The notes beneath the pieces are model-generated. The model saw only the letters and a program-made list of their open reading frames with translations. It ran no database searches and was not told the origin of the DNA. Source: an uncultured Methanoregulaceae archaeon (GTDB lineage: Archaea; Halobacteriota; Methanomicrobia; Methanomicrobiales; Methanospirillaceae). Taken from it: a stretch of 64,000 bases of DNA. The position numbers were made by a program, and so were the translations under genes. Where the stretch lies: the NCBI GenBank assembly GCA_963806845.1, contig CAWDZO010000021.1:136045-200044 (forward strand), read 5' to 3'. Numbering within the stretch: position 1 is the first letter of the stretch; the number at the start of each line of letters is the position of its first letter. Positions 3,986 to 56,874 of the stretch are shown here, in pieces.

Positions 3986-6038
<2,053 letters not shown>

Positions 6039-6091
6039 GGGTCTGCCTTCAGGAGCACGGGTGGATTCCCCTGCCCCATGCCAAAAGAATA

Positions 6092-7315
6092 TTATCCAAA
6101 TATCTTTTTTGATTGTTCAAGTGCATCAACAGCCGGGAGTTTTTTGCCGGTCAGAAACTCAATACAGGCCCCGCCACCCGTAGAGATATGGGTGAAATCC
6201 TGTTCAATGCCAAGTTTTTCTATGACTGCAGCAGTGTGCCCGCCACCGACAACTGAGAACTCAACCTGTGAGGCAGCCCTGAGCAGTTCGTAGGTACCGG
6301 TCGCAAAATCAGCATCTTCAAAGACACCGGCAGGTCCGTTAAAGACAACAGTACCTGCCTTTTTAAGAGCCTGAACAAGGGATGCAAGAGCGTCCATACC
6401 AAGGTCGAGCACGGGTGTATCTTCAGGAATCCTGTCAATGGGATATTCGACACGATGATTATCCTGCCTCACGGCAACAGATTCCGGCATAACCACACGG
6501 TCCCGGTAAAGGGAAAGAATCTCCTTTGCTTTTTCAATTTCCGGCTGGTATTTGAGTTGGGCAATCAGCTGGGTAGAGGGTTTTCCGATATTGTAACCGG
6601 CAGCAATCAAAAAGACATTGGCAACAACACCGATCACGATAACCTGATCGGCAATGCCGTTCGCCAGCACGTGCCGGGCGACATCAATAGAATCATCCAC
6701 TTTAGTGCCGCCAAGAACCATGCAGACCGGGCGGGGTGCACCGGAAAATACTTTCGAGAGTGTTGCAACTTCCTTTTCCATAAGGAGTCCGCCCGCTGAT
6801 CGCATGGCAAGAGGGAGACCCACGATGGTTGGTTGTGAGCGGTGGGCGGTACCAAAGGCATCGTTTACAAAAACATCAGCCATTGAGGACAGTTTTTTTA
6901 CCAGATGTGTCTTTTTTGCTTCTTCTGGTTTCAGGGTCAGGTTCTCTTCTGCATTGAACCTGACATTTTCCAGCATCAGCACATCACCAACCTTCATGGC
7001 ATGCACGGATTCCCGTGCATGACGCCCGAATATGCCGTCAATGTACTTGACCGGCTTTCCCAGCAGCTGCTCGAGCTTCTCTGCGTGGGCTTCAAGCGTG
7101 GTGAAATCTTTTTTTCCGGGTCTGCTCTGGTGGGTGACAATCACAACGCGGCTGTCAGAAAGGGCGCGGATTGTCGGAAGGTGCTCCCGGAAGCGTTTGT
7201 CATCGAGAATAATGTTGGAGGTGGGATCAATGGGGGAGTTGAGATCGAGCCGGAGGAGGACGGTTTTTCCGTTACACCCCAACTCCCTGATGGTTCCAAT
7301 CTGCATCCAGACCAC
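6092..7315 (-). CDS. pgk: Phosphoglycerate kinase
   Basis: RLDLNSP, HQSRPG, LENVRF, VNDAFGTAHR, NGPAGVFE, HISTGGGA. Confidence 0.97.
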   Translation of the reverse strand: MVWMQIGTIRELGCNGKTVLLRLDLNSPIDPTSNIILDDKRFREHLPTIRALSDSRVVIVTHQSRPGKKDFTTLEAHAEKLEQLLGKPVKYIDGIFGRHARESVHAMKVGDVLMLENVRFNAEENLTLKPEEAKKTHLVKKLSSMADVFVNDAFGTAHRSQPTIVGLPLAMRSAGGLLMEKEVATLSKVFSGAPRPVCMVLGGTKVDDSIDVARHVLANGIADQVIVIGVVANVFLIAAGYNIGKPSTQLIAQLKYQPEIEKAKEILSLYRDRVVMPESVAVRQDNHRVEYPIDRIPEDTPVLDLGMDALASLVQALKKAGTVVFNGPAGVFEDADFATGTYELLRAASQVEFSVVGGGHTAAVIEKLGIEQDFTHISTGGGACIEFLTGKKLPAVDALEQSKKIFG

Positions 7316-7324
7316 CTTACCGAT

Positions 7325-7955
7325 TTATGATGTGCTCCGGGCTTTGATTCTTTTCATCCGGAAGAGCTCTTCACGCTCCATCTCATCGAGGCGCATCTTG
7401 ATGAAGTCCCGGGCTGCGGTGAGTTCGGGGATTACCTTGAACTCGAGGGCATTTACCCTCCTTTTTGTCTTTTCAATCTCGTCAAGCAGGCGTTTCATCG
7501 TGGTTTCGATCTCGGCGCTTTCGATGATTGATTCCACAAGTTCTTCGAATGCAGAAGCAGTTTCATCAATGACCGTTGACGTTCCAAGAACACCATAGCC
7601 CCGGTCCACGAGGCTCTTCTTTACCTTGGATGATTCAATCTGGGGTACGATAACCCCCATAATATTTTTGCTTTTCAGGGTAATTTCCGGGACCTCTTTT
7701 ACCGAGAATGCCGCTGATTTCACACCAATCGCACCTTCTACGGTGTTGGCAAGTGCCATCATCTCTACGGCAACCTGATATTTATCCAGAAGTTCACCCC
7801 TGCTATCCTTCGCAGTTGGCAAGCACCTTGAAAAATTCAAGGATCAGTCCATCGCGCTTCATTTTGAGGATTTTGTAGCCCCGCTCGGAGAGCTGGATCT
7901 TCCGTTTCAGGTTGATCAGTTCCGACCGGGTCGGCTTGATATCACGCAGCGCCAT
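7325..7955 (-). CDS. atpD: A1AO ATP synthase subunit D (frameshift near 7820)
   Basis: MALRDIKPTRSELI...LKMKRDGL; EIEKTKRRVNALE; last gene of the operon. Confidence 0.95.
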
Positions 7956-7961
7956 GGACAG

Positions 7962-9350
7962 TTACTCCTTCTTTGCACCGGCCTTGAACTTCGGGTGGTA
8001 CTTGTTGATCAGTTCGCGGTCAATACGAGTCAGCTGCTCAACCGGCAGCGTCGACAGGAGGTCCCAGCCAAGGTTCAGGGTATCTTCTATAGTGCGGTCC
8101 TCGTCATAGCCCTGGCGGACAAAGCGGTTCTCAAAGATATCCGCAAACTCGAGGAGCAGGCGGTCCCGCTCGGAGAGTGCGTCCTTACCAACGATAGCCA
8201 CGAGGCCACGGAGATCGTTCCCTTCCGCGTACCCGGCATACATCTGGTCGGAGACCTTCTTGTGGTCTTCCCGCGTATGTCCCTTTCCGATACCGAGGTT
8301 CATCAGCCGCGAGAGAGAGGGCAGCACATTGATAGGCGGGTAGATACCCTTACGGTGAAGATCCCGGTTGACCACAATCTGACCTTCGGTGATATACCCG
8401 GTCAGGTCAGGGATCGGATGGGTGATATCGTCACCGGGCATTGTCAGGATCGGGATCTGGGTGACCGAGCCCTTCAGGCCCTTGATCATCCCGGCACGCT
8501 CATAGAGACAGGCAAGGTCCGTGTACATGTATCCCGGATACCCACGGCGTCCTGGTACTTCTTCACGGGCCGCACCGATCTGCCGGAGCGCCTCGCAATA
8601 GTTGGTCATATCCGTCAGGATGACAAGCACGTGCATACCGAGCTCAAAAGCAAGGTATTCGGCGGTGGTGAGGGCAAGCCGCGGTGTGATGATACGTTCG
8701 ACGGCCGGGTCATCTGCAAGGTTGAGGAAGACTACCGCTCGCTCGAGTGCACCGGTACGCTCGAAGTCCTGCATGAAATAATTTGCTTCTTCCTTCGTTA
8801 TACCCATCGCAGCGAAGACCACGGCGAAACTCTCGGTCGAGCCAGGCACCTTCGCCTGCCGTGCGATCTGCAGCGCGACTTTGTTGTGAGGGAGACCGGC
8901 TCCAGAGAAGATCGGGAGCTTCTGGCCACGGACAAGGGTATTGGTACCATCGATGGTCGAGATACCGGTCTGGATGAAATCCGCCGGCATGCCCCTGGCG
9001 TACGGGTTAATTGCAGCACCGGTGATATCGAGTCGTTTCTCCGGGACAATTTCGGGGCCGCCATCGATAGGTTTACCGCCACCGGACAGGATACGGCCGA
9101 GCATTTCACGACCCACGGGCATCTTGATGGTCTCACCGGTGAAACGGACACCGCTGTCCCTGCCGATACCGGTCGTATTCTCGAAGATCTGGACCACTAC
9201 CAGTTCGTCGCTCGTGTCGAGAACCTGACCACGCTTGGTTGAGCCATCGGAAAGAATTATGTGCACGAGCTCCCCGTAGGCAATCGGCTCGGTCTTCTCG
9301 ACGAAAACGAGAGGACCGGCAATCTTGTTGATCGTCCTGTATTCCTTCAT
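7962..9350 (-). CDS. atpB: A1AO ATP synthase subunit B
   Basis: [46 protein letters not shown]. Confidence 0.98.
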
Positions 9351-11113
9351 GCTGCCGACCTCAGTGTGTTGAACTCAGCGTCCATCTCTTTCTCGATTTT
9401 CGCCAGTTCGGGCTTGTAGTCCTTGATGAACTTGATCTGGGGCAGCTCGTTCTTCGATTTGACCCCGTTGATCTGCGTCGGGCTGACACCGGCAATCTGG
9501 GCGGCGTAGGCAAGTTCGGCGAAGAGCTTGATCGCCTTCATCATGTCGTACTGCTTTGTCATGTCACAGAACGTGTCAACAGCGTCGTACGCGTTCTGCT
9601 GGAGGAAGATCTCACGGATCATACGGGCGACTTCGATAGTGACCTGTTCTGACTCCGGCAGGGCATCGGAACCGACGAGCTGCACGATTTCCTGGAGCTC
9701 GGCCTCTTTCTGCAGGACTTCCATAGCCCACGAGCGGATCTTGTTCCACTCGGGGGAGACTTCCTTGTCATAGTAGTCGTGGAGTGCCTCAAGATAGAGG
9801 GAGTAGGAGTTGAGCCAGTTGATCGCCGGGAAGTGCCGGCGCTGGGAGAGCTTCGCATCCAGTGCCCAGAACACCTTGACGATACGAAGAGTGTTCTGGG
9901 TGACCGGCTCGGAGAAATCACCGCCCGGCGGAGAGACCGCACCAATGACCGATACCGACCCTGATGCTCCGTTCAGGGTCTTGACAAGACCGGCACGCTC
10001 GTAGAACTCGGAGAGCCGTGCTGCAAGGTATGCCGGATATCCTTCTTCACCGGGCATCTCTTCGAGACGGGAGGAGATCTCACGCATCGCTTCTGCCCAG
10101 CGGGAGGTCGAATCTGCCATCAGCGAGACATCGTAGCCCATGTCACGGAAGTACTCCGCGATCGTGATACCGGTATACACCGATGCTTCACGGGCAGCAA
10201 CCGGCATGTTGGACGTGTTTGCAATAAGTACCGTCCTCTCCATGAGCGGTTTACCGGTCTTCGGGTCCTCGAGGTGCGGGAACTCCGTCAGGACTTCCGT
10301 CATCTCGTTGCCGCGTTCGCCGCAGCCGATATAGACCACGATCTCGGCATCCGACCACTTGGCCAGCTGCTGCTGGGTAACCGTCTTACCGCTCCCGAAC
10401 GGGCCGGGAATTGCAGCGGTGCCGCCCTTTGCGATCGGGAAGAGACCGTCAAGGATACGTTGACCGGTGATCAGCGGGATCGTCGGGTTCTTCTTTTCTT
10501 TCACGGGACGCGGAACACGGACCGGCCAGCGCTGGATCATCGGGTACTCGCGACCATCATCGAGGATGCAGATCGTCTCATCAACGGTAAAGTCCCCGCT
10601 CTTGATCGTTTTGACAATGCCTGCCTTCACATTGGGCGGGAGCATGACCTTATGGACGATGTTGGTTTCCTGAACTTCACCAAGGATTGCTCCCGGTTCG
10701 ACCGTATCCCCTGTTTTTACGACCGGTTTGAAGGTCCACTTCTTCTCATGCGAAAGCCCGGGTGCAGAAACACCACGTTCAATGAAGTTGCCCATCTTGT
10801 CCACAAGCACGGCAAGAGGTCGCTGGATCCCATCATAGATACTGGTCAGAAGACCCGGACCGAGCTCCACTGCGAGAGAGAGTCCGGTGTTTTCCACCGG
10901 TTCTCCGGGCCTGATACCGGATGTATCCTCATAGACCTGGATGATGATGTTGTCACCCTGGATCTTGATGACTTCTCCCATCAGCGCTTCTTTACCGACC
11001 TTCACCACATCGTACATGTGGGCGTCAAGATTGACTGCCGTAACGACAGGGCCGGCGATTCTTTTGAGAACCCCTTGTTTTGCGTCTTTTGATTTTTTGG
11101 TTTTTACTTCCAC
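9347..11113 (-). CDS. atpA: A1AO ATP synthase subunit A (no intein)
   Basis: GPFGSGKT P-loop, [20 protein letters not shown]; 588 aa. Confidence 0.98.
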
Positions 11114-45698: not shown

Positions 45699-48600
45699 AT
45701 GAGAGTAAAACCTGGCATTTTACTAATCATGGGTTTGCTGTTCCTGGCAGGAACCGTTGCGGCGGTCGGGATTCCGGATACCCTGACTGTCACCACGGAC
45801 AAACCCTGGATCATAGCTAATAATCTTGATCAAGTCCACCATCACCGTAAAAGTAACGAATACAACCTCGGATCCTGGTCCTGTACAAGGAGTAATCGTA
45901 AACCTTGAAGTTGATCCGTTATATGGAAACATAAGTCCCACACAAGTCACCACAAATATTTCGGGAATGGCGTCAAGCACCTTCAAAGTGAGCACCAGGA
46001 GTGGGGCAGCACAAATAAATGCATCCATACCCGCGGGGGTTTCTGGTTCAACAATGCAGAATATAGATCATAACAGTGCCTATTTTGCAGATTTTACCCA
46101 TCCGATGAATGGGACCGTTGCATCCGAAGTTCCATTTAATGTATCACTTACCGATCAATACCGGAATCCTGTGGATAATCGAAGAGGGAACCATATAGTA
46201 AATCTCCACGTTCATGGTCCTTTCCCGGATGACTGCGGTTTTGCTGAAGCCGGCTATGCACATGATATTTCACCCATACTGGATGCAAACGGAAACACCA
46301 CAGTAAATGTCAAATTAACCTCCCGCGTAGGTGACAACAACATTGCAATGGACGCATATGAGAGTATCCCGAACCAACTTGCATGGATCTCTGCCGAGGC
46401 AATTGGCAAACCGTTTTCGATGACTCAGGTTTATTCACCTTCGGGATCTCCACCGACGCTTCCCGCGGACGGGGTGAGTTATTTCACGATAATTTATAAT
46501 TTGTTTGATGAATACGGGAATCCAACGAACAAACAATTTATCTGGGTAAATACCTCCATTCCCGGGGAGGAAAGACAGTTCCTGTCAAACAATCTGGGTC
46601 AGGTAACAGTACAGTATGGTCCCCGATCATCTATAGGTCAAATTGATATCATTGCAACAGCTGTGGGTAATACCTCAGTAAACTGTAGTCAAACGGTAAT
46701 ATTCAAGAACACGGGTGCGGAGATCATATCCCTTACCGCGAATCCTGATACTATGCCAAGCCAGGATGCAAATCCTTTCTTTTTATCTGATGTTATCGCA
46801 ACGGTTGCGGATATCTCGGGAAATGCAGTTCCCGGAGAGACGGTAAACTTCACTATAGAGGATATTACCTATAATTCCTATAATCTGACAGCAAACCCGC
46901 TCCTGTTGACTACCACCGCTGTAACCGATGAATATGGACAAGCTGTGGTTCAATTCAGACCCGGGAACTTTACAACGGTAGGCAATCCCGGTTACAATGC
47001 AACGGCAACAGGACAGTGTAAGGTGAATGCAACCTGGAGAAATTCGACAAAAATCGTTCCCCTGACCTGGAAGAATTATCCTTACCTGAGTGCGTCAACC
47101 AGGGTGACTCCTCTGACCGTTGAGATTAACAAGACGATTGATGTTACGATTGAGTTCAGAGGTGACGGGTGGGCTTTGCAGCCTACACCAATCGATGTTG
47201 TGATGTGCACAGACCGGTCAGGAAGTATGCTCTATAACGGAACTGATGGCATCATCGATGACCGGATGGTCCATGCAATGAGGGCGGGCAGGATTTTTAA
47301 TGCGAACATGGGTTCAAATGACCGGGTCGGGCTCGTATCGTTCGGAGATAATAGTGCCACCAGTGGATGGGCTGAACTGAGACAGGGTTTTTCGCACCAA
47401 TATAGTGGTGCCCAGTGGGTCAGCAAAGATAATACATGGACCGGAGATAACGCCTACATTACATCAAATTATCCGGGAAATCCGAAGAATTACGGAACAA
47501 CCCAGTATGCCAGTATTGACCAGAACTTAAGTTATACAAAATCAATGGTGAATACATCAATTTCAAACATGGTTCCAGCAGGAGGAACACCCATGCGGGA
47601 GGGGTTATACCGCTCAGTAAAGATGCTGGAAGATGATCCTCGATCAACTGCCATAAGCGCTGTCGTACTTATTAACTGACGGGGCATGGAACACCGGAGG
47701 AAATCCGCAAGGCGGTGCAGGCGCAACCTCGTTCGGTGTGGTTGGAACGGGGAGTGTCATTACCTGGGCAAAAAATAATAATATACGGATATATACCATC
47801 CGTCTCGGAACTGAGGCGTCGCAAACCGAACTGAAGGCATATGCGAATGAGACCGGGGGTAAGTATTTTAACGCACCCACTGCGGATCAGCTGGATGACA
47901 TATACAGAGCTATCGCCGGAGATCTGAAAGACACCGCCGGGGTAAACACCACCATGATGGCGGATTTCGAGAACGTTAATGTCACCGGAGTATCTATGCC
48001 CGGTAATCTGGTATACAACTATGTATACCATCCAACCGATTCGACAAAGATCAATTGGCAGGATGGAACAACGAATGTCACCAACCAATCCGCTGACTGG
48101 GCTGCCGATAATAAACTGGACTTCTCTATCGGAACCATAAAAGTAGGTCAAGTATGGAATGCTACCTTTCGGCTCAGAGTCAACCAGAGTGGAATGATTG
48201 ATGTTTTTGGTAACAATTCCACAGTATCCTTTAACGGGGGTCTGGAAAAACTGACGCTCCCTCAGACATTCATCACAGTAATACCCAACCTCACGGTCAC
48301 TGAAATTACCACGAAAACGATAACGCTCGATAATCTGACGTGTACCGAAGCCGGAGAGATCAAGGCTCTCTTTCCGGTAAAATGGAACACAAACTATACA
48401 GGAAATAAAACCCTCACGGAAAAGGTCTATTATCGCATTGATACAGGACCCTGGGTTCAATTCGACACAAAAACACATCCGTATGATCCCCTTACCATGG
48501 AATATGTGGATTATGCACAACTCGTTGTAACAAAACTCCCACCGGGAGATTTCAAGATTCAGGTACGTGCAACTGCCTCCGATGCACCCGATGCTGTGGC

Positions 48601-48748
48601 TGAAACCGGCGTGAGGGAGGTAGGTGGACGAGGGAAAACGTTTATTAAACTTGAAGCTCCCCCGTTCGAGAATTTTGAACAAATCCTTGACAATACTCAG
48701 TTCTTCAATCAAAATCCGTGGGGAATTGTGCATAGCTGGAGCGGTTAA
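45699..48748 (+). CDS. Secreted Ig-like (invasin/Big-type) repeat + vWA domain surface protein (two frameshifts)
   Basis: Signal peptide; repeated L.D.YGNP/T...G Ig motifs; MIDAS DRSGS, GGTPM, TDG, IYTI.LG, TGGKYF. Confidence 0.8.
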
Positions 48749-48971: not shown

Positions 48972-49637
48972 ATGAAAACGATGAAAGATATTTCTCCCAA
49001 CGACAGGCCACGAGAGAAGATCGCAAAAAAAGGCGCCTCTGCCCTGTCAGACACTGAACTGATCGAGGCTATCATTGGGCGGGGTACAAGAAACAAAGAT
49101 GTCCGCATGCTTGCCAAAGAAATCTGCGGGCTTATCGAGATACATAGGGAAAAAATCAGGTATGATGATCTGGCAGCTATACAGGGAATCGGACCTACCA
49201 AAGCTTCGCAGATCACGGCATGCTTTGAACTCTCGCGGAGATATTCCCCCAATGGAGGAACGAATACGCATGTGACAAAACCCGAAGATATCCTCCCCCA
49301 TGTTGCTTATTTAAAAGAAAAACGGCAGGAGCATTTCATCTGTATCACCCTCAATGGCGCCGGCGAAGTTCTCGGCAACAGAACGATAACCCTGGGTCTG
49401 CTCAACCACAGTCTTGTCCATCCGCGGGAGGTGTTTGCCGATGCAATCACGGACAGGGCTGCATCTATCATCTGCGTTCACAATCACCCTTCGGGTTCCC
49501 TTGATCCCAGCCCACAGGACATTGCGATCACAACTCAGCTGAAAGAAGCGGGAGTGCTTCTCGGCATCCAGCTAATCGACCATATCATTGTCACAAAAAA
49601 TGGACATCTCAGCCTGCGGGAGCGGGGTTTACTCTAA
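48972..49637 (+). CDS. radC: RadC family protein (HhH + JAB domain)
   Basis: RPREK...LSD.ELI, GIGPTKA, VHPREVF, HNHPSG..PS..D, DHII. Confidence 0.93.
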   Translation: MKTMKDISPNDRPREKIAKKGASALSDTELIEAIIGRGTRNKDVRMLAKEICGLIEIHREKIRYDDLAAIQGIGPTKASQITACFELSRRYSPNGGTNTHVTKPEDILPHVAYLKEKRQEHFICITLNGAGEVLGNRTITLGLLNHSLVHPREVFADAITDRAASIICVHNHPSGSLDPSPQDIAITTQLKEAGVLLGIQLIDHIIVTKNGHLSLRERGLL

Positions 49638-49996: not shown

Positions 49997-50701
49997 ATGG
50001 TGATTAAATTGAGAAAAAAAGAGATGAGTACGAAAAAAGTTCTCTTAATCAGCATCATGCTGATAGCGCTGACCGCACTCCTGACAGGTGTCGGGACAAT
50101 GGCATATTTCAGTTCAACTCAAACGAGTGGTCCCAATCTGCTCAGTACAGGAAGCATTACGATTAACGTTAATGGTCAGGATCCCTGGACCGGCACCTTC
50201 AACGCAACGCTTGCAGATGTGAAACCCGGTTTAAAGCGTTGGGGAAACGTTACCGTGCAGAACACCGGGCAGAATCAGGCAGATCTCTGGTTGAATACTA
50301 TTAATGTTGTCACGGACAACGGATCAAATACCTCCGCAGAGATTTTAGAACCCTACGCCTTTGATATCGACGGGGTAATCCGTTATGATTTGTATAATAA
50401 CACCGGTTCGGGCCTTCAGCCAATAATCACGGACTCTAACGATTACACGATCAGCACGGGAACTCATAATTTAACCGGATCTCTTCAAACCACTGCGATG
50501 AAAGATCAATGGATTTACCTGGGTAACATTCCCTCCGGGGCAACATGGCAGATTAACCAGAGTTATATGATGGACCGTAACGTCACCAACTGGGCGCAGA
50601 CGGATAATATGACATTCAACGTCGTATTTTATGCCCAACAGAGCCAGGGTACCCCACTACCGGCAGCCCCATCACCAGAACTCCCGGGACACGGAAGATA
50701 A
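49997..50701 (+). CDS. TasA/camelysin-family pilin with SipW-type signal peptide
   Basis: GVGTMA|YFSS cleavage signature, TGSITINV, VKPG, VQNTG, and C-terminal NWAQTDNMTFNVVFYAQQ; directly followed by a SipW-type peptidase. Confidence 0.85.
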   Translation: MVIKLRKKEMSTKKVLLISIMLIALTALLTGVGTMAYFSSTQTSGPNLLSTGSITINVNGQDPWTGTFNATLADVKPGLKRWGNVTVQNTGQNQADLWLNTINVVTDNGSNTSAEILEPYAFDIDGVIRYDLYNNTGSGLQPIITDSNDYTISTGTHNLTGSLQTTAMKDQWIYLGNIPSGATWQINQSYMMDRNVTNWAQTDNMTFNVVFYAQQSQGTPLPAAPSPELPGHGR

Positions 50702-50761
50702 CCCGGATTGTGCAGGTAATTTTCCTGCATAGTAACATTTAAGGTGACGTGGTAACAGGAG

Positions 50762-51283
50762 ATGAATACGCAAAACCTGAACTCAGGAAAACCTCAAATA
50801 AAACGAGTGGGAAGAGTCGCAGCAATTCTCCTCCTTATTTTAATTATTTCCGGGTCATTATTCACCATCGTTTCGCCCTTTTTTGGCTGGAGGACTGAGG
50901 TAGTCATTTCAGGGAGTATGGAGCCTGCGATACAGACAGGCAGTGTCGTTATTGTCCGCCCCATAGTTCCGGATACTATCCAAAAAGGAGATATTATCAT
51001 GTTTTCTTCGCTCGATATGACGAGCCTGACCACACACCGGGTAGTTAATGTAGAATATGAGCCCACACTCCAGTTCATCACCAAAGGAGATGCTAACAAA
51101 AATTCTGACATAACCCCGATCGTACCCGGTCAAATTGTGGGTATTGTTGCCTTCACTATCCCGTATCTTGGGGTCATCACCCAGTTCATCAAAACACCAC
51201 TGGGATTCACCCTTTTCTTCCTGATTCCGGCAATGATTCTTATCGGACGCGAGGTGCTTGATCTCTGGAGAGAGATGGAATAA
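50762..51283 (+). CDS. sipW: Signal peptidase I, SipW/Sec11 (ER) type
   Basis: VISGSMEP (Ser), THRVV (His), TKGDAN..D, IPYLG, N- and C-terminal TM helices. Confidence 0.9.
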   Translation: MNTQNLNSGKPQIKRVGRVAAILLLILIISGSLFTIVSPFFGWRTEVVISGSMEPAIQTGSVVIVRPIVPDTIQKGDIIMFSSLDMTSLTTHRVVNVEYEPTLQFITKGDANKNSDITPIVPGQIVGIVAFTIPYLGVITQFIKTPLGFTLFFLIPAMILIGREVLDLWREME

Positions 51284-51304
51284 CAGAGAGTAGAGCCTTA
51301 AACC

Positions 51305-52678
51305 ATGAAAACCACAGCCATCGTAATTCTTGTCTTAACTCTCGTGGTAATTTCTCTCAGTACCTTTGGTACAACCCATGCATATTTCACCTCTAAACAG
51401 GTAACGGGTCCGCATCTTGTGTCGACGTGGCAATCCTCTTTCTGGACCCAGACAACCCAGGCTGACTTTTTGGCAGGTGTTCTGGTTAATGTTAATACAA
51501 GTACCAGTCCAGGGAGTGTCCTACTGGATAACCAGACAACAGGTCCGTCGATTTTTGCTACAACAGGAAGTTCAAGGAATTTTTTACAATATTTTGTATC
51601 CAACAATACGTGGGTAGCAAGGGCGATTGCTCCAGCAAATATTGGAGCCGGGGGAGGAGCTCGGTATATCGGGATGGGCAATATTTCTGTGATCCGAGGT
51701 GGTAATTCCAATGCTTTCTGGATCTATAACATCTCCACCAATACGTGGTCAGTAAAGGCAAACACACTAGGTAGTGTGAACACAGGAGGAACATTATCAG
51801 ATTATATCGGGTCTGGCAATATCTCGACACTCAGAGGTGCCAGTTCACGCACATTCTGGATATACAACATCTCCAGTAATACATGGTCAGTAAAGGCAAA
51901 TACCCCCATCGGCGGTAATGTTGGTACCGGGGGAGCTTTGGCATATATTGGATCTGGTAATATCTCGGCGCTCAGAGGTGCTAACTCACGCACATTCTGG
52001 TTTTACAACATCTCCACCAATACGTGGTCAGTAAAGGCAGATGTTCCCGGTAATGTAGGTGCCGGGGGAGCCATTGCATATGATAACGGAAACTATATTT
52101 ACGCATTTAACGGAACGAATACCCGTAATTTCTTGAGATACAGCATCTCCGGCAATTCATGGTCCGCATTGGCAAATATACCCGGAAATGTTGGTGCAGG
52201 AGGATCTCTGGTTTCGGATAAGGGGAATTATATTTACGCATTTAACGGTACAACGACTCCCTATTTCTGGAGATATGACATTACCAATAACAGCTGGAGT
52301 GAAACTGCAGTTGCCAACCCACCAGCGAATGTTGGTGCAGGGGGAAGTCTGACGTACGTTGCCGGTTCTTCCGGATACATCCCCCTTGGTACCATTGCCT
52401 CGCCTGTATTTGACACCGGGAATGCGGGAGCACGATGGGACTCACTCTTTTGGGATAGCACCCTTGTTACAGGAACGAATGTGACCTTTGAGGTACGGGC
52501 GTCCAACACCCTCTTTAATAAATCTGACGCAGCACCTGCCTGGCAACAATCCGGCTGGCCATCACCGGTTAATTCAGGGCTCCCCTCCGGCAGGTATCTC
52601 CAATGGCGTGCCACCCTTTCGACAAGCAATTCATCAAGAACACCAATTCTTAACGAAGTGACAGTATGGTACTCGTAA
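51305..52678 (+). CDS. Secreted SipW-type substrate with six Kelch-like propeller blades inserted in a beta-sandwich (putative tip adhesin)
   Basis: GTTHA|YFTS signal; six F..Y....N.W / G(A/T)GG repeats; flanking WTQTTQADF...SPVFDTG...RYLQWRATL...TPIL.EV. Confidence 0.8.
   Translation: MKTTAIVILVLTLVVISLSTFGTTHAYFTSKQVTGPHLVSTWQSSFWTQTTQADFLAGVLVNVNTSTSPGSVLLDNQTTGPSIFATTGSSRNFLQYFVSNNTWVARAIAPANIGAGGGARYIGMGNISVIRGGNSNAFWIYNISTNTWSVKANTLGSVNTGGTLSDYIGSGNISTLRGASSRTFWIYNISSNTWSVKANTPIGGNVGTGGALAYIGSGNISALRGANSRTFWFYNISTNTWSVKADVPGNVGAGGAIAYDNGNYIYAFNGTNTRNFLRYSISGNSWSALANIPGNVGAGGSLVSDKGNYIYAFNGTTTPYFWRYDITNNSWSETAVANPPANVGAGGSLTYVAGSSGYIPLGTIASPVFDTGNAGARWDSLFWDSTLVTGTNVTFEVRASNTLFNKSDAAPAWQQSGWPSPVNSGLPSGRYLQWRATLSTSNSSRTPILNEVTVWYS
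51670..52260 (+). repeat. Intragenic tandem repeats encoding propeller blades (period ~135-141 bp)
   Basis: TGGTCAGTAAAGGCA at 51746, 51884 and 52025; TATATTTACGCATTTAACGG at 52094 and 52229. Confidence 0.9.
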
Positions 52679-52739: not shown

Positions 52740-53830
52740 GTGAGGACTTCAGGGATGGCATACCAGAGATCATTATTCCCGCTGGCGGTATTCATTTTCA
52801 TTCTCCTCATTCTTCTGCCAGTACCGGTTTTTGCTCAGGGCCCCGTTGACCTCACCTTCGGAGAGACGGGTATGTTCCCATGGAGCATCACGGGAATTCT
52901 GCCAGGGGACCATGGTTCAACCTTTATCGATCTTCATAACAATGGGACCGAAAACGGAATTGTCTATATTTGGGTGGATAACATCAGCATGTCTGATAGA
53001 CACGGTAATCCTGGCGGTGGGATTGCCAATTATATGTACTTCAACATCTCACAGCATCATCTCATTAGCACGGTAATTCTTCCAGCTCGTATCAATTCTT
53101 TTCCCAAAGCTCCCCTGCTGCCAGATGATTTTATCATCATTGAATCATTCAATGCCGGGGATACAATCAGGCTCAACTGGACATGGGAATTTGAAGAAAC
53201 AGGGCAGCCACAGAATGATGCACAGAATAATACTCTGCGCTTCGACCTCTCATACACACTGGTGAATCTTACCACCCCACTAATACCGACTCCAGTTCCT
53301 ACGGTGATACCCCCAGGAACTTCAACAGGAAAAAATGTGATGCCCCAAGGTCCTTCCCTATTCGAGGCCGGGGGAATCCCCGGATTAAATCCTGCTCAAC
53401 GTCCCCAACTCAGAGCACCAATGGAGGAACCTCCGGAGATGGAGCCCCAGCAACCAAAGCTTCCTGATTACGGGCACATTATGATACTGGCATTCATCAT
53501 ACTTGCCATTGCGGTTGCCCTTCATTCACAACGAAAGATGCATCCAGAGTGGAAGGGTCCTGCAGATGTTCTTCTTGGGGTTGGAATCGTCGCGATAATA
53601 ATCGGCATACTCTACCAGTCATATCTTATTTCAATCCGCGATGGCCCGCACCTCACCGGAGCGCATTCGGTTGCGGGGCTCATTGCCACGATTTTATTAA
53701 TTCCGGCTCTGGTATTATGGAAACGCCAAATCGACCAGAAAGAGAGAGGAAAATAATTGTATGGATTATTGTTCATTGGGTTGTTACAACGATCGTGTGC
53801 CGAGTACCCGGTCTTTTGAGGGGTGGAACG
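52740..53830 (+). CDS. TasA-fold ectodomain + Pro-rich linker + multi-pass membrane anchor (possible frameshift near 53750)
   Basis: Ordinary signal (VFA|QG); ILPGD, LHNNG and NDAQNNTLRFDLSYTL match the pilin core; PTPVPT linker; three TM helices plus a likely fourth in the shifted frame. Confidence 0.65.
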
Positions 53831-53946: not shown

Positions 53947-56278
53947 ATGAACTGGTTTGATTCTATACGGCAGGACCACCCATTTTTTTTCCGCTGTATT
54001 ACTTTTATGTTTTTCGTTCAGATCTTCTTTGGACTCCTGTTTTTAATAATCAGCCCGGTCACTGCAGCCACAGATACTCCTCCAGGATCAGATCCTCGCA
54101 TAGGATGGGTGAAATCATTCGAACAACATAGTGACGGAGGGACGTATTCCATCATTGCCGCAAGTGATGGGGGATCGGTGGCCAGCGGAAATATTAAATC
54201 TCCTTCCGGGAAGTTCCAGTCTCTATGTCATAAAAACCGATACAAATGGAAATAAAATATGGGACTGGAACGACGCAGGAAGTACCTATGAAGGATATTC
54301 CATTATTGAAACACCGGATAAAGGATATGTTGTTGTCGGAAGTTCCAATACTACCATCACGAACGGGATTTATTCTCATGAAACTTGATCCGGTCGGAAA
54401 AATGACATGGACACAGCTATTCAAAAAAGGTGAGTATTACTTCGGAAATCATATCAGTACAACACATGACGGAGGATTCATCGTTGCCGGGGCCGTGTTG
54501 AGGAATGACACTTCTTCATCGTCTCTCTGGGACGGGTACACTCTCAAAACCGATGCAGAAGGAAGAGAACAGTGGACCGGTTTTTTTAAGGGCGAAAAAA
54601 ATGATTTCGCCAAGTTCATCCGCCAGACCGAAGACGGGGGATATATAATTGCCGGGACCACCGAAAGCTATGGCATTACCGGTGTTCCGTTAACGTACCT
54701 GCACAAGATGAATGAATTTGGCAATAAAGAATGGCTTACCACCTATGGAAGCGGGCTGGGGAATGAAAAACTATCTGTCATTCAAACACCGGAAGGAGGG
54801 TATATCCTCATGGGAATCTCCCTGCCCGTTACCACTAATCAAGGATGTATGGATCTTTTTCTGGTCAGAACCGATGATCATGGCAAAGAACTTTGGAAAA
54901 AAAATTTTCCCGGGATGGGGAGAGCCACGGGTAACCTCCTTATCCCAGGCTGCTGAAGGTATAACCGTCATCGCAGGTTCCTGCCAGGGATCTGAACGCG
55001 ATAAAACCGGTGAGATAATCTTACGTGACATCGATCTGAACGGCAATGAGAAGCGGAACCGCACATTCAGTATCGGACAATCCATCGATATACAGGATAT
55101 TGCAGTTGTCCCGGGTGAAGGATATTTCATTAGCCGGTATATTTACCGATCAGGAAAGCCCCCAAAAAAACGGGTTTGGCCATTATCAAGATACTCGATA
55201 CCCCCTCCCGCACTGAGGTACCTGAGAAAAACTCATTCGACTTCACGGTAATAACAAAAGATGCTGAAACCGGGACTTTTATTGGAGGGGCCCATGTGTA
55301 TCTTGACGGGGGGTCAGTCGGAAGCACCTCGGAGCAGGATGGAAAGCAGATTCTCCGTGATGTTGAGAGAGGCTCACATACTATCAGGGTGGCAAAAACA
55401 GGATATGAAGAGATCACCCGACCAGTCGATATTACTGAAAAGAAGCAGGTCTCCTTCACTCTCAACCGATCAAACGTGATACCGGTGCAAATCCATGGAT
55501 CAACAGATGAAAAGATTGATATTGTTTTTGTCGCCTTCAAAAACTTCGTTTAACTGTAATTCCAAAACAAAAATCCAGACCGACAGTATATACCGGTAAT
55601 CAGCAACGATTCATCCAGATGTAAACAATAAAGTTGAATGTTTTTTTAACAGTTGGATACCCTGACCTCCGGTTCGGTGGGTTTGCCCAAGGATTTCCGG
55701 GAACGGTTCAATTTTTATTACTACTGGGATACCGGGAGTTACGCTGATGCTTTCGAAGGTTGTGCTGGAACACTTCCCAATGAATTCTGGAATGATGCAC
55801 CATTCACTGATGTGGCAATTATCATGTACCCGTCCTATGAGGGTCTGCTATTCCGGCTCCCCCGTGTGAACCAATTGGGTGTGCAAACGGCCTGGGGCCC
55901 GGATCAGGATCCTGGCTGAAAGCACCAGCTGATTCCCCCATGATTTTTCTGCATGAGAGCGGGCATGTGGTCTTTGGTCTGATTGATACCTATTGCGGGG
56001 ATACCTATTACGTGGAAAATTCTCCTTTTCCCAATGTCTGGAGTTCTGAATCCTCATGCAAAAAAAATGCCGAGCAGGAACGCTGGGATATCACAAGCTG
56101 CCGGCAAATTTTAAAACCTGCCAGCAGCCGGTCAAAAGATCCCTGTGTGAAAAATTTCTGGAGAGCGGATACTGATCCTGATATCATGGGCAGCGGGGCA
56201 TATTCCGGCAGGTTCGGTAATGCTTCAACTTCACATATCCGTCATATTTTTGATACGATCAACAGGTGGCAGAAATGA
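53947..56278 (+). CDS. Secreted beta-propeller + PEGA-like + HExxH zinc metallopeptidase (M64-like) protein (multiple frameshifts)
   Basis: Signal peptide; repeated T.DGG(Y/F)I.AG and KTD..G...W blades; GAHVYLDG...K.GY; KIDIVFV; HESGHVVFGLIDTY; DIMG. Confidence 0.7.
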
Positions 56279-56874
56279 AGCGTTTCGTTTTCGCAGGTCT
56301 GATTTTTCTGGTGCTCCTGCAGGGAATCTGGTTTGCTTCCGCAGATGACTCTCCCGATTATTCTAAGATCGTTGTTGTCCACCTCAACATAAATAAAAGC
56401 AGTATCACAGAAAAGTCAGTTGAGATGCGATACGGCCACCCCCCAAATATCGAAGGCCGGAAGTGGGGACTTTAAAGGGACGCTAAAATCGACTGATGGT
56501 TCCACGATCCGGGAATTTACTCTTTGGGATCCCCGCTATCAGCTGGGGGATGTCCTTGAAAAAGACAATGAATCTTCCGATTATCTTTCCGGGTACCTGA
56601 CATATTCTGATAATGCAGATCTTGTCCTCATACTTCCGTACTATGAAAACCAGATGACGTTTGAGTTGCATGACAAAAAGACCGGGACTCTGTTAAAAAA
56701 AGTGAATATGTCGCAGGCAATAACAAAATTTCAATCAAACTATCCCAAAGATCCCGGAAGTATTTCTGTATCTACCTATCCAATTCGATAAATCCGTTAT
56801 ATATGTGATAACCGGAGTTGTGATTTCGATACTTATCATCGGAATGATTCTCTCAATGAGTTCGAAAAAAATGA
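56275..56874 (+). CDS. Secreted/membrane-anchored partner protein of the metallopeptidase (frameshifted)
   Basis: ATGA overlap with the peptidase stop; signal peptide; beta-rich domain; C-terminal TM plus Lys tail. Confidence 0.6.

Follow-up and report, generated by a model that had tools for sequence, protein, structure and literature searches.

Why should two secreted proteins that otherwise have nothing in common begin, once their signal peptides are removed, with largely the same fifteen residues? The question is posed by a four-gene locus in a 64,000-nt stretch of DNA (hereafter the window, within which all coordinates are given) from an uncultured Methanoregulaceae archaeon (assembly GCA_963806845.1, contig CAWDZO010000021.1, positions 136,045-200,044 of the forward strand). 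The metagenome-assembled genome (MAG) behind the window comprises 1.75 Mb and is 56% complete, the window lies on its contig 21, and the closest public relatives are labelled Methanoregulaceae or Methanoregula. The locus consists of four same-strand genes separated by gaps of 60, 21, and 61 bases, which encode a pilin, a signal peptidase, a Kelch-type protein (here called the partner), and a fourth protein. The 15-mer is shared by the pilin and the partner, most likely because the partner inserts this segment as a β-strand into the pilin, thereby initiating and capping a surface fibre.

The pilin (49997..50701, plus strand; 234 amino acids, aa) and the partner (51305..52678, plus strand; 457 aa) each possess a hydrophobic signal segment ending in Ala, which is followed by Y37 in the pilin (position 50105) and by Y27 in the partner (position 51383). 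By analogy with TasA, cleavage is predicted just before these tyrosines. The first 15 residues of the predicted mature proteins are then encoded by 50105..50149 in the pilin, where they would form the donor strand and the start of a linker, and by 51383..51427 in the partner, where they look like a copy of that strand; nine of the fifteen are identical (positions 1, 2, 4, 6, 9, 10, 12, 14, and 15). A preliminary description of this DNA had pointed to such a common mature N-terminus, with diverged codons and no similarity over the rest of the two proteins, and the open reading frames (ORFs), their coordinates, and the identity count have all been borne out. The two coding segments agree in 25 of 45 bases and differ in codon at six of the nine shared residues. 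When the complete proteins are compared by BLASTP, residues 15-51 of the pilin align with residues 8-41 of the partner (E 1e-5) as the only significant segment, and a profile-profile comparison of the two families (hhalign) likewise aligns only the signal peptide and the strand (E 2.4e-5). Moreover, among the 3,491,154 six-frame 15-mers of the 1.75-Mb assembly, the sole match of at least nine residues to either peptide is the other one. Thus, the identity is beyond what chance would produce.

One historical explanation is that the shared segment was left behind when a 5′ module was exchanged or duplicated between the two genes long ago, and that it has no present role beyond secretion. The genes are indeed only 1.3 kb apart on the same strand, and their identity extends into part of the signal peptide. 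Nevertheless, we regard such a relic as very improbable, because the differing codons indicate that the residues have been kept by selection, and the strand-bearing architecture is conserved across archaea and Chloroflexota.

What the segment may do is suggested by the pilin, which is a TasA homologue: its signal peptide precedes an N-terminal donor strand, and its body is a jelly-roll that contains an acceptor groove. Its residues 13-218 match PF12389 (Peptidase_M73, TasA/camelysin) with 26.3 bits against a cut-off of 22.5, and it also exceeds the cut-off of TIGR04088 (SipW-dependent-type signal peptide; 25-27.7 bits against 19). A profile made from 27 relatives matches the TasA structures 5OF1 and 8AUR (E 3e-10) in an alignment that starts at TasA F29, and the pilin 15-mer corresponds to TasA residues 28-42. 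According to cryo-electron microscopy, TasA residues 28-38 act as the donor strand: they fill in the β-sheet of the subunit that follows, and F29, I32, and F39 make the hydrophobic contacts (PMC9674648). Residues F29 and F39 fall on positions 2 and 13 of the 15-mer, which are occupied by F and by L or V, respectively, in both window proteins and mostly by F or another hydrophobic residue throughout the pilin and partner families. By analogy with TasA, it is proposed that the pilin forms fibres linked by donor strands.

A different answer is offered by the gene located between the pilin and the partner (50762..51283, plus strand), which encodes a 173-aa signal peptidase I of the SipW type (archaeal or endoplasmic reticulum (ER) type, S26B) with hydrophobic segments at both ends. 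The protein scores 107.9 bits with TIGR02228, the model for archaeal/ER-type signal peptidase I (cut-off 51.85), and also 107.9 bits with the Bacillus SipW equivalog NF046067, which is below the cut-off of 190; it is SipW-like in kind and context and not an orthologue of the Bacillus enzyme. The shared segment might then only mark the substrates of this peptidase on the primed side of the cleavage site, the Kelch protein being a co-secreted surface or matrix protein outside the fibre. In agreement with this explanation, most pilins and partners bear a family-wide motif after the cleavage site (F2, D4, E6, N11, an aromatic or aliphatic residue at 13, and A15), which is covered by TIGR04088. In the window's own genome, 56% complete, a scan with TIGR04088 and the motif for further SipW-type substrates matched only the pilin and the Kelch protein.

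How much of the similarity is generic can be judged from homologous operons. In a permutation test on ungapped 15-mers from 23 dereplicated operons, the partner strand was anchored on the conserved D-F of the following domain, and two Methanomassiliicoccales operons (L059 and L061) with a two-residue difference in strand length were excluded. Cognate pairs share on average 6.87 identities against 5.60 in non-cognate pairs over positions 1-15 (p ~1e-4), and 3.91 against 3.20 over positions 7-15 (p ~0.002). The preliminary description had conceded that the similarity might reflect SipW specificity and nothing else, and a generic component of this kind does exist, non-cognate pairs still having 5.6 of 15 residues in common. 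At the window locus, though, the partner has only 1-4 identities out of 15 with non-cognate pilins and nine with its own, so the generic motif explains only about two of the nine. Both Methanoregula strands have left the consensus together, at the same positions, out to +15, and a second, diverged Methanoregulaceae operon (L033) has a different run that is again shared by both of its proteins. We infer that this joint change was imposed by the groove.

Type I signal peptidases are not expected to read as far as position +15, and lineage-specific identities at positions 9-15 would lie far from the active site, which counts against a motif serving the peptidase alone. It also speaks against this explanation that the motif is absent from the operon's fourth secreted protein, whose signal peptide is of the ordinary kind, that the segment is homologous to the donor-strand region of TasA, and that a co-fold docks it as a β-strand (see below). 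On the other hand, strand, pilin, and SipW always occur together, which makes SipW a possible co-evolving party, and when the Methanoregula lineages are left out, covariation is clearest at positions 1-6. Taken together, a mere substrate mark seems unlikely.

Two other operon variants should be mentioned here. In L033 (7625-8372, genome G250), the pilin gene is split into ORFs of 123 and 140 aa, possibly by a frameshift or because it is a pseudogene, while the partner and anchor genes are intact. In another Methanomicrobiales genus (L021, L022, and L026 from G288, G125, and G181), a different type of SipW operon encodes a pilin and a second TIGR04088-type protein of ~198 aa; the peptidase, encoded next, has 351 aa and an additional C-terminal portion. 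Both substrates have the lineage-specific residues W at +1, I at +13, and T at +15, and this type provides another case in which the N-termini encoded by a single operon co-vary.

Can the partner strand be accommodated by the pilin? The preliminary description held that both N-termini fit the same acceptor groove, as in TapA and TasA, and suggested docking the partner peptide into an N-terminally truncated pilin. Co-folding of pilin residues 52-234, from which the own strand was removed, with partner residues 27-62 gave a score of 0.79, the best of three controls reaching 0.01. Of 80 solved complexes, 58 attain this mark, as do 2 of 110 mismatched pairs; because the alignments here were custom-made, these counts serve only as a rough guide. 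At least 85% of contacts recur between the runs, and the predicted local distance difference test (pLDDT) value of the partner is at least 60. In the model, the interface on the partner comprises exactly residues 27-44, lying as a β-strand against pilin residues 200-215; partner residues 30-39 run antiparallel to pilin residues 205-213, which form the conserved C-terminal strand, and pilin residues 52-76 are placed on the other side. The co-fold thus supports binding of the partner strand to the pilin, and the idea of a common groove is upheld by the modelled binding together with the alignment to TasA 28-42 and the joint change of the two strands.

Beyond the strand, the partner has quite a different architecture: the signal peptide and the pilin-like strand are followed by a split conserved domain into which a six-bladed propeller is inserted. 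The propeller is recognised by Kelch_6 (PF13964; 74.3 bits), and its model matches the Kelch domains of Keap1/KLHL proteins with a template modelling score, normalised by target, of ~0.8. In the full-length model (pLDDT 65), residues 17-78 are below 50, and the split conserved domain shows only β-structure. When the partner is aligned with its relatives, one sees a signal peptide, the strand, a conserved piece of ~40 residues (~44-85), a variable middle, and a conserved C-terminal part of ~100 aa. Methanoregula and some Dehalococcoidia have a Kelch propeller as this middle, whereas other methanogens have something else, a pattern that suggests one conserved split domain with an exchangeable insert. 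For the conserved N- and C-terminal pieces, no family was found in Pfam or NCBIfam. The TapA family TIGR04087 gave no match at E up to 10 with the N-terminus or at 0.01 with the whole protein, and although a TapA-like role is proposed for the partner, it is not a TapA member. Partner-family proteins also exist outside pilus operons (five loci: L057, L080, L095, L122, and L123); some exceed 1000 aa, some come from Coprothermobacterota, and all of them lack the strand, the signal peptide running directly into the conserved domain.

If the partner does bind the pilin, it may do so either permanently or in passing. As a transient, TapA-like chaperone or nucleator, it would trigger the switch of the first pilin and then be displaced, and there would be no stable tip adhesin. 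Such a role has been argued for TapA from nuclear magnetic resonance and ultracentrifugation data (PMC10151520), and the docking result is compatible with either role. However, a large propeller with 15 N-x-S/T sequons, together with partner inserts that vary between lineages, resembles an exposed binding module, and a polymer joined by donor strands should contain nothing able to displace the strand from the groove at its end. A purely transient partner therefore seems improbable to us. In one Dehalococcoidales operon (L074), two partner genes with different middles stand in tandem (6001-7548 and 7557-10007), and their strands share 10/15 and 9/15 residues with that of the pilin, which suggests that they encode alternative tips for one fibre.

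The fourth gene (52740..53756, plus strand) encodes a 338-aa protein whose signal peptide is followed by an ectodomain of the TasA fold; a Pro-rich linker then leads to three transmembrane segments in the C-terminal part (241-265, 272-300, and 305-329) and a basic tail at the end. In an hhalign comparison of the two families, pilin residues 51-216 align with residues 33-190 of the fourth protein (probability 98.8%, E 7e-17). Homology thus starts at pilin residue 51 and, in the fourth protein, right where an ordinary signal peptide ends, which means a TasA fold without a donor strand. The model of the ectodomain (pLDDT 79) has TasA 5OF1, 5OF2, and 8AUR as its top matches in the Protein Data Bank (probability 1.00), while no Pfam or NCBIfam family was found for the ectodomain. 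The protein is a candidate for a groove-only membrane anchor or terminator.

With a second groove encoded in the operon, the partner strand could enter the membrane-anchored TasA-fold protein instead of the pilin, or besides it; in that case, the cell would show the propeller directly on its surface, and the fibre of pilins would be a product in its own right. The anchor protein shares the fold of the pilin but not its strand, its gene neighbours that of the partner and is conserved along with it, and in locus L062 a partner with a strand-like run stands next to an anchor gene on a contig that ends upstream. Against this arrangement, the pilin is present in all loci with enough flanking sequence. 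The partner strand also tracks the pilin strand, as would be expected for one common groove, whichever of the two it is. We consider exclusive or additional use of the anchor groove unlikely as well.

The four-gene arrangement recurs in several Methanoregulaceae, in another Methanomicrobiales family (five genomes: G036, G059, G080, G138, and G092), in Methanomassiliicoccales, and in dozens of MAGs from Dehalococcoidia/Chloroflexota. In loci that show both neighbours and a readable N-terminus, all 45 of the 45 partner ORFs with the strand motif adjoin a pilin and a SipW-type peptidase. Nine ORFs of the partner family have neither a motif call nor a pilin or SipW neighbour, and in most of them the signal peptide is followed by the conserved domain with no strand between, while L062, one of the nine, has the strand-like run mentioned above; the remaining ORFs in the survey represent contigs ending in the locus or pattern misses. 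Where both neighbours can be seen, the strand motif stands only beside a pilin and SipW, and it can thus be described as a module found only in the pilus context. Eight loci with weak TIGR04088 matches (L038-L044 and similar) contain none of the four families.

These observations can be combined into one scheme, and we think it rather probable that the four genes encode a donor-strand pilus of the TasA type with three kinds of subunits, in which the partner contributes only a strand, as initiator or tip adhesin, and the fourth protein only a groove, as membrane anchor. The pilin, with both strand and groove, would polymerise head to tail. After cleavage by the SipW-type peptidase of the operon, the partner would lodge its N-terminal ~15 residues in the first pilin's groove, fill a groove that would otherwise be empty at one end, and so start the fibre, remaining at its far end as the fibre grows. 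The propeller would be exposed at the tip as a binding module. In this, the partner would be comparable to TapA and TafC and to the role proposed for AbpB. The fourth protein, which offers a groove without a strand and is fixed in the membrane by its three helices, would take up the strand left free on the last pilin, end growth, and anchor the fibre to the cell, like TafF. The polarity of the fibre, the retention of the partner at the tip, and the role of the anchor are drawn purely from domain logic. In this pilus, the shared 15-mer would serve as a common address for the same groove.

Several points weigh against the scheme. Cleavage sites, fibres, and binding at this locus are predicted from sequence and models only. 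The N-terminus of the partner is below the TIGR04088 cut-off (13.7-14.0 bits against 19) and matches profile positions 2-25 only. The favourable co-fold may reflect the likeness to the solved TasA fibre (8AUR), and its score, obtained with the pilin's own strand absent, is silent on competition with self-complementation. The joint change of the two strands rests on few independent lineage-specific events: without the two Methanoregula lineages, the excess of cognate identities is weak over positions 1-15 (6.76 against 6.15, p 0.008) and not significant over positions 7-15 (3.76 against 3.45, p 0.08), and with that last value general strand-groove covariation across the family is not claimed. 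Co-variation of the N-termini across homologous operons, which the preliminary description had proposed to look for, thus holds for the full set of 23 operons and for the Methanoregula lineages and is weak when these are left out. Since pilin and SipW always co-occur, SipW may also be the co-evolving party, and the pattern would look no different if a 5′ module had been exchanged between the two genes long ago and then kept under purifying selection.

More generally, one may tentatively imagine, as a bolder proposal that we hold to be somewhat less than an even chance, a modular three-part TasA pilus that has spread between archaea (Methanomicrobiales and Methanomassiliicoccales) and Chloroflexota. 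Its strand-only tips would carry exchangeable modules (Kelch or other inserts) in a split domain, a groove-only, membrane-anchored pilin paralogue would set the polarity and length of the fibre, and the strand would co-evolve with the groove to give each operon its own address. The window pilin is 43% identical to a Dehalococcoidales pilin (L076, 5021-5680), including the same unusual Pro-rich C-terminal tail, and the Kelch-type partners of Dehalococcoidia (L048 and L050-L053) are 42-47% identical to the window partner. These identities point to operon transfer between bacteria and archaea.

Two genes in the surroundings of the operon are broken. On the 5′ side, a large surface protein gene (45826-48748) with Big_1/invasin-like Ig domains and a vWA domain is divided into two ORFs in different frames (45826-47679 and 47738-48748). 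Its orthologue in the same genus is a single ORF of 1043 aa (L011, 2426-5557), and the split is due either to a frameshifted pseudogene or to an assembly indel. Between this gene and the pilus operon lies a RadC-family gene with a JAB domain (48972-49637), whose placement is also kept in same-genus relatives (L011 and L013). Directly 3′ of the operon, the gene at 53947-56280 is broken into at least five overlapping ORFs, its same-genus orthologue being a single secreted protein of 773 aa (L011, 10541-12862). The two broken genes suggest indel errors in the MAG; nonetheless, each of the four pilus genes is unbroken.

Among the biofilm scaffolds of Gram-positive bacteria, the fibres of the TasA family have been studied best. 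For the TasA homologues of archaea and of uncultured bacteria such as Dehalococcoidia, we know of no assignment of parts beyond the pilin. The locus described here suggests a full and testable parts list that includes the pilin, its peptidase, a strand-only tip with an exchangeable binding domain, and a groove-only anchor. If true, TasA-family fibres would thereby have their first complete list, which would explain how a fibre is started, tipped, and anchored without TapA. In addition, the natural joint change of the two strands points to residues that may set the specificity between strand and groove. For methanogens, the product would be a candidate adhesion or aggregation fibre, which could matter in syntrophic contacts. 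In a search of the literature, no description of the operon came to light for Methanoregula, Dehalococcoidia, or Methanomassiliicoccales.

How does the proposed pilus compare with known systems? Like the TapA-SipW-TasA system of Bacillus subtilis, the locus combines a PF12389 major subunit with a dedicated SipW-type peptidase in the operon, and like TapA, the partner is an accessory protein of unrelated fold whose mature N-terminus resembles a donor strand. With 9 of 15 residues shared, the two window strands look more alike than those of TapA and TasA. The N-terminus of TapA resembles the TasA donor strand and has been modelled or shown to complement TasA (PMC9674648, PMC10151520). In contrast to TapA with its Ig-like fold, the window partner is a Kelch propeller within a split conserved domain and gives no TIGR04087 match. 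The gene order differs as well, the strand-less TasA-fold membrane anchor is an addition absent in B. subtilis, and the host is a methanogenic archaeon.

The same proposed architecture of tip, pilin, anchor, and peptidase is found in the Tat-fimbriae (Tafi; TafC, TafE/TafA, TafF, and TafD) of Haloarcula hispanica and Natrinema, a likeness drawn from the published descriptions. In Tafi, the tip protein TafC donates its N-terminal strand and turns its outer domain outward, the pilins are joined by donor strands, and the terminal jelly-roll of TafF fixes the chain in the membrane through three C-terminal transmembrane helices; the system has its own peptidase, TafD, and the roles of TafC and TafF are themselves model-based (PMC11821415, PMC12337348). 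Like TafF as described, the fourth protein has a jelly-roll ectodomain without a donor strand and C-terminal transmembrane helices. However, the Tafi pilins are treated by their authors as a group separate from the TasA/ABP type, and many are exported via the Tat pathway; TafD, unlike the window peptidase, is a larger, two-domain enzyme assisted by TafG.

In the archaeal bundling pili of Pyrobaculum calidifontis, AbpA is a TasA-like pilin assembled by donor strands in an archaeon, and its neighbour AbpB was suggested to supply the first complementing strand and to be an adhesin (PMC9245690). Unlike the window pilin, AbpA is only remotely TasA-like; its locus lacks a dedicated peptidase, AbpB is a TapA-like β-sandwich, and no strand-less anchor paralogue has been described. 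Chaperone-usher pili (FimH/FimA, with PapH as a terminator) obey the same logic of polarity with special end subunits, one of them without a strand or groove partner, including a terminator and a tip adhesin. Their proteins, however, are unrelated and their polarity is opposite, FimH having a groove and no strand; they also need a periplasmic chaperone and an outer-membrane usher, neither of which is evident at the window locus.

The principle of strand donation is thus already published for TapA and TasA or proposed for Tafi and AbpB, and what the present locus adds is breadth and detail, not a new kind of mechanism. New, in comparison with all these systems, are a partner family that by sequence is not TapA-like and seems to carry exchangeable inserts in its split conserved domain, its combination both with a pilin of the TasA family and with an anchor that is a strand-less paralogue of the pilin, the spread of this combination across methanogens and Chloroflexota, and a clear lineage-specific joint change of the two strands.

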